DNA of 64,000 nucleotides from Cirrosporium novae-zelandiae (taxonomy: Eukaryota): NCBI GenBank assembly GCA_026023565.1, contig JAPETS010000039.1, positions 186,001 to 250,000 of the forward strand. Direction: 5' to 3'. The notes below the pieces were generated by a model. That model saw only the letters and a list, made by a program, of their open reading frames with translations. It was not told where the DNA came from and ran no database searches. How positions within the stretch are numbered: position 1 is the stretch's first letter; each line of letters begins with the position of its first letter. This document shows positions 42,140-45,338 of this stretch, one piece after another. Made by a program: the position numbers and the translations under genes.

Positions 42140-42762
42140 TTTGACTTCGTTGCCGCAAAGCGGACTTGAACAACCAAGGAAACCTGTATTTTGGAAAGAG
42201 TGACGAAGAGAATTAAGAAGCCCAGCTCTATTAGGGTTACTATTTGAGCCTGAGCATGAGCAGAAAGAAGTTGAAAGGTTGGAAGAAGAGGGATGGAAGA
42301 GTTGTGAAGTTATTGTCTATTTGAATTGGCAAGGTGGTGTTTTCCAAAAAGACACCTAGAAAGACACCTAATTCAGGGATCCAATCAATTATCAGCTTGG
42401 CCTTTCTCCACGTTTACACAGTCAGGTCTTACATAATATTAATAAATATGAAATCCTACGGTGACCTGGGGAATCCCCAAACGAAACCTCCCCATATTTG
42501 TCTGTAAATAGATATCTTTAATGCCACATTTATTCCGTCCCCACCCTTATTATTCTTATACGAACTTAGCTCGAGTGTGGATTAGTAGGTAACCAGAGCT
42601 TTGATCTAATCAGCTAATCATATAGATACAGTAAGTAACGATAAGATCTAACAACCAATAGCCAAATCCCAAGATCCAAAGCCGTACGTAGTGAATCCAG
42701 CACACACAGTATGCAAGGAACTTATAGATTGCCTAGCTACAAACAAGATCCTATCTGTACCT

Positions 42763-42905
42763 TATATATACCACAAACAAAACACATTCTTCCAGCCAAG
42801 TCGTAGCCAAAACATCTAACACCGGTCCTCCCATTAGCCCCGGCTTACCAAAGGCTAGGGAACTTGGCTTTTTTTGTTTCTCTGGTTGGTGGAGAGTTCG
42901 AATCC
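42763..42905 (+). ncRNA. Candidate RNA polymerase III small RNA (~42794-42875) with upstream TATA and downstream B-box; family unrecognised
   Basis: TATATATA at 42763-42770; terminal stem AGCCAAGT 42794-42801 / ACTTGGCT 42862-42869; inner stem TAGCC/GGCTA; T7 at 42869-42875; GTTCGAATCC at 42896-42905. Confidence 0.55.
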
Positions 42906-43280
42906 GGTTTAGGAATCGTTTTTTCTTCTTTATTTCATTTTGTTTTTTGGTTTCTGTTTTAGGGTCCTCTGGGATACATATAATTAGGATTGTTCTGGTT
43001 GATTAGGCTTGGCGGGTTGATTGGGGTTTATATGAAGAAGAATATATACCACGTAATCCTCTTGGATTTGTTGAGTCTTATATTTTCTCTGAGATGGTAT
43101 ACTGTATGTTATAGTGTACTATGTTCATTTGGATCTTGACTTTTATCTTTATTGGCTAGATATATTTTTCAGACATTTTTTTTTACATCTTATATTTCTT
43201 CATCTTCATCATCATTCCCAACTCGCCTACATGGTCCCTGTTCATATCCCTTACCTCAAGTCCCATGCTCAGCCTTCCTC

Positions 43281-44117
43281 TCACTCTCTTCCACCGTCCC
43301 ACTTCTTCTCTTCGTCAACGAACCTAACCTCCTTACGTGGTGGCTCCTCAAATTGCAAGCTCATAACCCAGACCTCCGTACAAACAAGCATCACTGTCGC
43401 ACAACCTCCAATGGAACTGATTCCGTATCCCTTATCCGCGCTCAGCGCCATCCACGTCGGCCAAGCACACCCTCCATTACTAATACCTTCGGAAATAGCC
43501 ACAAGAGGTAAAATAACGAAGTATTTCATGCCTTTGAGATAGGGACTAAGGATGTTGATTAGAGATGCTGCAACCATAGGTGTCGTGGCATTGACGGCGG
43601 GCCACCACATGGGGAAAGGACCAATGGTAAGAGGTTGATATCCATAATATGTATAAATGCCCATATACAGCGCCGGATATTTCAGAATCATATTCGCGAA
43701 GAATGAACTCGCCCACAGGTTCCAAATATCCTTCCCCCTCATCTTTTTCCTCCCGTTTTTATCCTTGGCTTGAAATCGAATCCAGAACCAATATCCAACC
43801 CCCCCGACATACCAACTATGTGTCATAGGTACGAACAATGGGATCGGCTGGTTCCAGAATTCAAAGATTGTCCAGTTGCCGGAGTGGGGGAAAAAGCACA
43901 TGCCGAGGACGTCGACGATGGGTTCGTAGAGAGAGGCGATCATGCCGCCGAGGGTGAAGAGTAGGCAGGTAGGGTCACGACAGATGTAGATGTTGCGGAT
44001 GGCAACGTAAATTAGATATATAAATGGTATTTGGGTTGCAACTGTGAAGACGAGCTGCTCGTTGGAGGGCATTACCATGTCCGGAGGGGGCTGGATTCGG
44101 GTGCTCGGAATAAACAT
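43281..44117 (-). CDS. Intronless multi-pass membrane protein (~278 aa), unknown function
   Basis: Single ORF with about 7-8 hydrophobic segments and two related motifs, EPIVDVLG.CFFP..PIP and KYPALYMG.Y.YYG.QP..FP.WW. Confidence 0.75.
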   Translation of the reverse strand: MFIPSTRIQPPPDMVMPSNEQLVFTVATQIPFIYLIYVAIRNIYICRDPTCLLFTLGGMIASLYEPIVDVLGMCFFPHSGNWTIFEFWNQPIPLFVPMTHSWYVGGVGYWFWIRFQAKDKNGRKKMRGKDIWNLWASSFFANMILKYPALYMGIYTYYGYQPLTIGPFPMWWPAVNATTPMVAASLINILSPYLKGMKYFVILPLVAISEGISNGGCAWPTWMALSADKGYGISSIGGCATVMLVCTEVWVMSLQFEEPPRKEVRFVDEEKKWDGGRE

Positions 44118-45338
44118 CTTGAATAGTGATACCCTTTTTTGTTCCAAGTTTTGAAATTTTCTGAATAGAGAACTTGACAGCTATATAAGAGAAAAGGGAA
44201 ACAGCGATAGCAGGAATTCAGAAAAGATGCTTAGGTGGTATTATATAATCATCATGTGAAACCACATAACCTTAGAAGAGATGATCGGAGCAGGAACAAA
44301 ATAGGGAAGTCCTGGCCTCCGCATCATTAGTAGAGAGTTCGTTCATATAAGTATGCATAAAAATGTGCCAATTTCCTTATCTGTCTGTTAGCAAAAACGA
44401 GTAGAGAAGTACAATATGTATTTCTCGTTCCCCCGGCTTTGGAGTTGAGAGGGAGAAAACGGCGCGGGAATTGAGGACGGAGGTGATTTAATTATGCATT
44501 GGTATGCAAGAATATGTATTTTTATTGATTGTGCATACTGAATTATGCGAGCTATTCGATTATCACAACCCGACGTACCCGACGGATAGATACCGAGGGC
44601 AGCTAATATTCCCAGAGGATAAATCGGAATAAAATGCTCTAGATAATCCACAATCATCTTACGTACGCCGCAGAAAGATTTTCTGCCATTTACATGTGGA
44701 TTTTCGGTAGCGGCGTTTATCTGTTACAGTATGCCAAGCCTCAGCGAAACGCCTGCGCGTAGCACATATTCTTTTATATAAAGGAGAACACTACCTAGAT
44801 TATTTGCACCTACCGAAGGGAGGGGGAGGCAGCAGTGTTAGGAAATAACCTAAACCAAATAGACGGTCTATCTATTTTGGTCTATATAAATACAAATTTT
44901 ATGGTGGTGAGAGAGGATTTTTTTTGTGGTGTTGGATTTTAGGTTTAGCCTGGGAGCTGAAAAAGGTATATAATCCAACCTTGCTTCCTGGTCCCCAAGT
45001 GCCTTATGAAGGCCCTCTATTAAACATTGAGGTCCTTGTTGAAGATTCTAGCTGGCGCGCCTATTGATTGATCAATTCTTTGGAAATCCCAATATGTATA
45101 TTTTTGAACTTTGATAACCTTGTGATATTTGAATTTATCGCTATGTGGAGTAGTAGGCTTTATGGGTAATGTATAGGTAAAGGTGTGGAAGGATAGAAAA
45201 GAAAAGAAAAGCAAAGAGAAAACTATAGCAGTGATAGGTATTTATTTTCTGTGGGTATGGAGGCTATTATTGATTTCTATTCTAGGATTTATTTGTCTCT
45301 AGGTAAACTAGAACCATCCTATCCTACCCGCGAAGGAT

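Follow-up and report, generated by a model that had tools for sequence, protein, structure and literature searches.

Among the described systems, the closest is SNR6 of S. cerevisiae, in which a TATA box lying upstream, an A block within the gene, a terminator and a downstream B block are combined (PMC5855946 and PMC11346459, available parts of both). According to the available part of PMC5855946, the A and B blocks of SNR6 lie about 200 bp apart, and fungal U6 promoters are flexible and occur with or without downstream B blocks. The same part of this source describes how TFIIIC binds the B and A blocks and loads TFIIIB on the TATA box, how a T run stops Pol III and how La binds the U tail. 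A second point of reference is formed by RNA170, ZOD1 and the ETC sites, which are intergenic, bear a B-box and have no assigned function in the available parts of PMC5356446 and PMC3395662. RNA170 has its B-box (ETC5) within the gene, and ZOD1 represents a tRNA gene that has decayed (PMC5356446, available part). A third is given by milR-1 to milR-4 of Neurospora, which are transcribed by Pol III as short units between genes and possess TATA-like elements and a T run; the primary transcript of milR-1 measures about 170 nt, and neither an A nor a B box is predicted for it (PMC3547838, available part).

The locus analyzed here lies in a 64,000-nt stretch of Cirrosporium novae-zelandiae DNA (the window). 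It occupies part of the roughly 800 intergenic nucleotides between SEC61-alpha and the 3' end of the right-hand open reading frame (ORF), and the candidate RNA contains no ATG-started ORF of note. A base-by-base check recovered every element listed in an earlier, preliminary description of this DNA (Table 1). As in SNR6, a TATA box is present about 30 nt upstream of +1 and a B block follows the oligo-T terminator; the TATA element sits 34 to 24 nt before the predicted +1 (A42794). Unlike in SNR6, the RNA is not U6, the A-to-B spacing amounts to about 91 bp instead of the roughly 200 bp given in the available part of the SNR6 source, and the B-box is located merely 20 nt past the T-run. The layout of SNR6 that had been claimed for this locus is therefore present in its TATA box and in its B block after the terminator, and absent in its spacing. 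On these features, the candidate gene is best seen as a tRNA-type promoter with its terminator ahead of the B-box, that is, a compact SNR6 layout. As 91 bp is at the top of the 30-90 bp range of tRNA genes, the nucleosome bridge proposed for SNR6 would not be needed. The A-box-like element described earlier, at +11, matches the consensus in its 5' half; the final GG is missing, as it is in the U6 of this genome. The candidate shares its intergenic position, its B-box and the lack of an assigned function with RNA170, ZOD1 and the ETC sites, and differs from ZOD1 and RNA170 in that no tRNA remnant is detected and the B-box lies outside the RNA.

Table 1. Elements of the candidate Pol III unit and its flanking genes (window coordinates).
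Feature	Position	Strand	Remarks
TATA box TATATATA	42763-42770	+	within CCTTATATATA (42760-42770); CCTT-TATATAT context
Predicted RNA	42794..42875	+	+1 = A42794, end in T7 run; ~78-82 nt
Terminal stem, 5' arm AGCCAAGT	42794-42801	+	8 bp; pair probabilities 0.7-1.0
Terminal stem, 3' arm ACTTGGCT	42862-42869	+	from sequence and pair probabilities
Inner helix TAGCC / GGCTA	42804-42808 / 42853-42857	+	from sequence and pair probabilities
Central 4-bp CCGG/CCGG hairpin	42822-42825 / 42840-42843	+	overlaps alternative helix arm 42829-42839
A-box-like TAGCCAAAACA	42804..42814	+	at +11; first five bases double as 5' arm of inner helix
T7 run, predicted Pol III terminator	42869-42875	+	earliest T5+ run after +1
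Extended extragenic B-box GAGTTCGAATCCG	42894..42906	+	13-mer context
B-box core GTTCGAATCC	42896-42905	+	20 nt beyond T-run; core at +103
Second T6 run, possible fail-safe terminator	42919-42924	+	sequence only
Divergent SEC61-alpha, start codon	42137..42139	-	by eye; ~620 nt from TATA of candidate
Convergent intronless membrane-protein ORF	43281..44180	-	stop at 43281; AATAAA 43153-43148

The start of the candidate was compared with those of other Pol III-type genes in the same genome. All 77 sites of the B-box 10-mer and the U6, SRP and MRP loci were inspected, and a matrix of TATA box and initiator was derived from 13 local Pol III-type starts, with the candidate left out; 11 of these 13 belong to unverified Pol III genes, only U6 and SRP being identified. 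Genes of this kind have in common a CCTT-TATA-like block that precedes a pyrimidine-purine start by about 32 nt. The TATA offset is 32-34 nt in 12 of the 13, including U6, and the candidate has the same motif and offset. With this matrix, for which the training +1 positions were placed by eye with the candidate already known, 42794 ranks 2nd of 127,890 window positions (11, 14 and 4 with the three other training sets). This top-ranked start is the first base of the terminal stem. When left out of the training set, two of the 13 starts obtain low scores (0.3 and 1.5), and a strong TATA box with a pyrimidine-purine start fits Pol II too. A minus-strand gene from the same palindromic TATA was rejected, as its start ranks 904-9008. 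The A-box (+11) and B-box (+103) of the candidate fall inside the ranges of local Pol III-type genes: the A-boxes of SRP, U6 and others are found at +9 to +17, and a dispersed SINE-like family carries its A-box at +14 to +16 and its B-box at +78 to +107. The extended 13-mer of the B-box occurs at 10 of the 77 core sites (six in the SINE-like family, one beside U6, the candidate and two unexplained), so that seven of the nine other sites are in Pol III-type settings. The copy of the candidate is identical to the extragenic B-box beside U6. At U6 and at a pair of near-identical genes (L006/L075) the B-box equally lies outside the transcript, about 63 nt upstream and inverted.

The candidate RNA folds at -22.8 kcal/mol, which is modest overall relative to shuffles (z -1.7 to -2.4). 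Pair probabilities reach 1.0 for pairs 2-7 of the terminal stem, 0.76-0.79 for the inner helix and 0.77 for the CCGG helix; an alternative helix of 42829-42839 with 42853-42861 (p ~0.2) was absent from the preliminary description. In the best fold, the duplex consists of 8-9 and 5 bp with an internal loop, which by eye is CG/GGGA and follows the 8-bp stem. Neither a K-turn nor a tRNA cloverleaf is formed in the candidate, again by eye. A read-through RNA of 131 nt extending to the T6 run folds no better than shuffles (z -0.19). A duplex between the loop and the downstream part of this read-through RNA is matched in 5 of 1000 shuffles, and was picked after the fact and not counted as evidence.

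This outline recalls two references named in the preliminary description, the Y and vault RNAs, which have a closing stem of 5' and 3' end starting at +1, large internal loops and a U tail. The candidate resembles them in these traits and in size, in outline only. Vault RNAs carry the B-box inside the RNA; in the candidate, T7 precedes the B-box, which thus falls outside the predicted transcript. The Ro60 site of Y RNA is a helix with a bulged C, in place of which the CG/GGGA internal loop is seen by eye. The TROVE domain of Ro60 (PF05731) has no match in this genome, the assembly of which may be incomplete, and its controls matched in 2 of 14 genomes; the major vault protein (PF01505) has no match here, nor in any control genome. 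With no Ro60 domain found, a Y RNA identity is unlikely, and the earlier suggestion of a Y- or vault-like RNA fares worse than that of a Pol III gene, given no Rfam match and a B-box placed unlike that of vault RNAs.

No known family accounts for the element either. With Rfam 15, no part of the window reaches a gathering score, and even at E up to 10 no family matches the element. ARAGORN detects no tRNA gene in the window, and U6, SRP and MRP are located elsewhere in the genome. The statement that the sequence is not U6, 5S or a tRNA is hence in agreement with these searches, and the comparison with Rfam does not remove its novelty. snoRNAs are recognized by C and D boxes inside a terminal stem or by an ACA tail; by eye, neither is present, there is no Rfam match, and both a box C/D and an H/ACA snoRNA were rejected. 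A DNA search of the genome returns a single match, the candidate itself, and no dispersed copies of 42740-42940, unlike a SINE, which has multiple copies and its promoter inside the transcript. An origin from the SINE-like family was also rejected: a forced alignment is suggestive, but 267 and 183 of 300 shuffles score as well. Patterns of the 3' arm with three mismatches yield two matches (three in the control). Those of the 5' part with two mismatches yield 21, of which 11 form one tandem repeat, and none of the nine loci inspected continues into the RNA. A single-sequence model run over 89 source sequences finds only the candidate at E below 0.2. A diverged paralogue elsewhere in the genome is possible.

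Outside this genome, the exact pattern of stem, T-run and B-box has no match in metagenome contigs. The best 80 of 525 SEC61 loci, 49 of them with at least 1 kb upstream, show no match in sequence, model or architecture. None of the 80 is linked to SEC8 or the right-hand ORF, i.e., synteny is not kept, and because these relatives are distant and non-syntenic, the negative result for homologues is weak. The ORC2 of the window is at most 59% identical to that of named relatives, Acarosporales foremost, which points to an ascomycete host without close kin in the collections searched. The homologue search proposed in the preliminary description has therefore yielded no paralogue or homologue, and none for covariation. 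In viral contigs, 93 matches to stem and T-run were obtained and 80 inspected; the best (22 bits) is due to the searched stem itself, and these candidates were rejected. Among the viral matches, one of 94 nt recurs in phage contigs (L195 and about 40 other viral contigs); it shares the terminal stem and the T-run with the candidate, to which it is unrelated by model R1.

We regard the candidate as probably a transcribed Pol III unit, judging by its promoter-like and terminator-like elements. The reading as a whole, a single-copy Pol III gene for a stable, protein-bound orphan RNA of about 80 nt, is more tentative, and we give it a probability of roughly 0.4. TFIIIC would contact the weak A-box inside the gene and, about 91 bp from it, the B-box that comes shortly after the terminator, and would place TFIIIB on the TATA box. 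Pol III would then start at A42794 and stop in the T7 run. The first eight bases of the product would pair with its last eight, leaving a U tail for La or Lsm, and the RNA of about 80 nt would most likely serve, through the A/C-rich loops that it exposes, as a protein-bound scaffold or decoy rather than an antisense guide. In 40 tests for antisense pairing (five RNA segments against eight local targets), none goes beyond multiple testing, the best being reached by 1 of 40 shuffles. As no antisense target was found among the eight tried, protein binding is favoured over guiding. The earlier reading as a Pol III gene is partly supported: the local promoter model speaks for it independently, no known family takes it away, and the searches above returned no homologue. 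The stable, protein-bound RNA is favoured over a boundary element with a by-product RNA, chance, a source of milRNA and a fold-back remnant. If confirmed, it would be a new small RNA of no known family with a compact SNR6-like promoter outside U6, for which the genome-specific promoter model predicts the exact start and end. If the site is merely a bound promoter, or the RNA a by-product, the interest is low.

One possibility, although an unlikely one, is that the site is a chromatin element bound by TFIIIC and TFIIIB, comparable to ETC, ZOD1 or RNA170, for instance a boundary beside SEC61, and that any RNA is a weak by-product. The strong B-box and TATA box next to a weak A-box would suit such an element. 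Yeast ETC sites are intergenic B-boxes able to act as boundaries (PMC3395662, available part), and transcription is weak at ZOD1 and RNA170, both of them orphan Pol III loci (PMC5356446, available part). The location is suggestive too, between the conserved SEC8 and SEC61 and an ORF without a family on the other side. The assignment of SEC61-alpha agrees with the SecY and plug domains found in its downstream exon by domain search, and the right-hand ORF (43281-44180) matched no Pfam family. A boundary element would, however, offer no explanation for a perfect stem whose ends coincide exactly with +1 and the terminator. Moreover, ETC sites lack TFIIIB and Pol III according to the available part of their description, whereas the candidate has a top-ranked TATA box and start. 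The yeast 3' extension of the ETC motif is absent as well, by eye against the eight sites in the available part of PMC3395662, the consensus being that of budding yeast. Regarding the right-hand ORF, the Atlas clusters closest to it have a bacterial share of 94-98%, for the most part from Actinomycetota, and AveC-like folds appear lower in the list; according to the warning of the tool, such bacterial neighbours are no sign of gene transfer.

Equally unlikely, the apparent gene may be a chance assembly of Pol II promoter parts, i.e., a TATA box, two inverted GCCAAG motifs resembling a stem, intergenic DNA rich in T and a fortuitous B-box. GCCARG, the PacC motif, is represented by GCCAAG in both stem arms, and there are five such sites in 42396-43465; it is not enriched in the window, though (62 vs 55.5 +/- 7.2), and the stem comprises 8 bp, not 6, with further helices inside. 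The single elements are indeed common. The B-box 10-mer has 77 genome sites against 49 for its reversal, hence its single copy means little, and about 49 of the 77 would be background. A loose pattern of TATA, T-run and half B-box has 74 matches genome-wide against 85 for the reversed control, which equals chance, and TATA, T-run and B-box together occur 0.39 times per shuffled window, near chance. Chance would also fit the conservation, none of which was found. Nevertheless, the offset of the TATA box, the start base, the ends of the stem, the T-run and the extended B-box would all have to coincide, and the TATA box is about 620 nt away from the SEC61 start codon. By criteria chosen once the element was known, the full layout occurs once in the window and in none of 150 shuffles. 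Among 18,547 purine starts (those with their first T5 50-300 nt away), 42794 alone forms a perfect 8-bp stem that closes onto that T5. The support for a gene is therefore the coincidence of independent signals, not the single elements; with the very many windows screened overall, rare coincidences will surface.

It is very doubtful that the candidate is a Pol III primary transcript processed to a microRNA-like small RNA for Argonaute, as proposed in the preliminary description among other options. Its premise, that Pol III makes Neurospora milRNA precursors, agrees with the available part of PMC3547838, where the four abundant milRNA genes are described as transcribed by Pol III, each with a T run at its end. 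The candidate shares with these genes the short intergenic unit, the TATA-like element and the T run, and four Piwi-domain loci, one with stops, are present in the genome. The stem speaks against the proposal, being short for a typical precursor: a duplex of 8-9 and 5 bp with an internal loop falls short of what a product of 19-25 nt would require. Dicer needs a duplex of about 21 bp. Non-canonical milRNA routes are possible despite the short duplex. In addition, milR-1 has neither a predicted A nor a predicted B box, unlike the candidate (PMC3547838, available part), and none of the 40 tests on eight local targets yielded a target above shuffles.

It is highly improbable, finally, that the site is what remains of a fold-back element or an inverted duplication that has decayed, with the B-box at its centre and one arm still carrying the promoter: 42643-42810 aligns with the reverse complement of 42999-43168 at 108 of 160 columns, both TATA and GCCAAG being in register, the best of 632 window centres and above 200 of 200 shuffles, but unrelated A/C-rich DNA (L005) outscores it on the same arm (49 vs 43), stricter scoring shrinks the alignment to 11 bp, 42740-42940 has no dispersed copies and the mirror start ranks 521-3064. 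An inverted-repeat origin of the flanks is suggestive from this alignment, and since it concerns origin, it is compatible with the reading as a Pol III gene.

Should the stable Pol III RNA be real, it may not stand alone. It is quite unlikely, yet conceivable, that the candidate belongs, in filamentous ascomycetes, to a class of short Pol III RNAs with closed ends that is undescribed and evolves fast. Such a class would be defined by architecture and not by sequence (TATA box, weak A-box, a stem from +1 to the terminator and a B-box just outside), would have its own protein partner and would be the fungal counterpart of Y or vault RNAs. If true, the terminator before the B-box would leave no part of the RNA constrained by the promoter. 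Little of the Pol III transcriptome has been charted in filamentous ascomycetes. Our literature search, mostly without subscription papers and supplements, retrieved no description of the candidate RNA, and one on this transcriptome retrieved nothing specific. A second Pol III-type RNA without a family is present in the same genome, namely the pair L006/L075.

This pair consists of a near-identical gene of about 217 nt at G000:C1, ~224700-224990 (minus strand) and at G000:C96, ~748670-748950 (minus strand). It shows a TATA box, an A-box at +17, a T-run and an inverted upstream B-box as at U6, has no meaningful Rfam match and contains one pair with a compensatory change. U6 itself is encoded by two tandem copies about 420 nt apart (L002/L003, G000:C63:774556-775139) on another contig than the candidate. 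Where S. cerevisiae has its downstream block, copy 1 relies on no such element and carries an inverted B-box at about 63 nt upstream of +1 in its place. An RNase P RNA was not found among the 15 of 1845 candidates scored in this genome. The dispersed SINE-like family counts at least ten copies (L009, L013, L021, L022, L026, L032, L035, L047, L062 and L078) with a TATA box and a perfect A-box and B-box, and ARAGORN assigned a tRNA fold to none of the copies it was run on; by its sequence, it is a candidate SINE-like element or multi-copy small RNA. By eye, L025, L030 and L056 are tRNA-like genes with long inserts in the anticodon loop, of which ARAGORN missed L025 and L030. L033 (G000:C50:410971-410980) and L014 (G000:C13:588802-588811) each hold an extended B-box that stands alone, 44-51 nt from a TATA run and with no obvious gene; both are candidate ETC-like sites.
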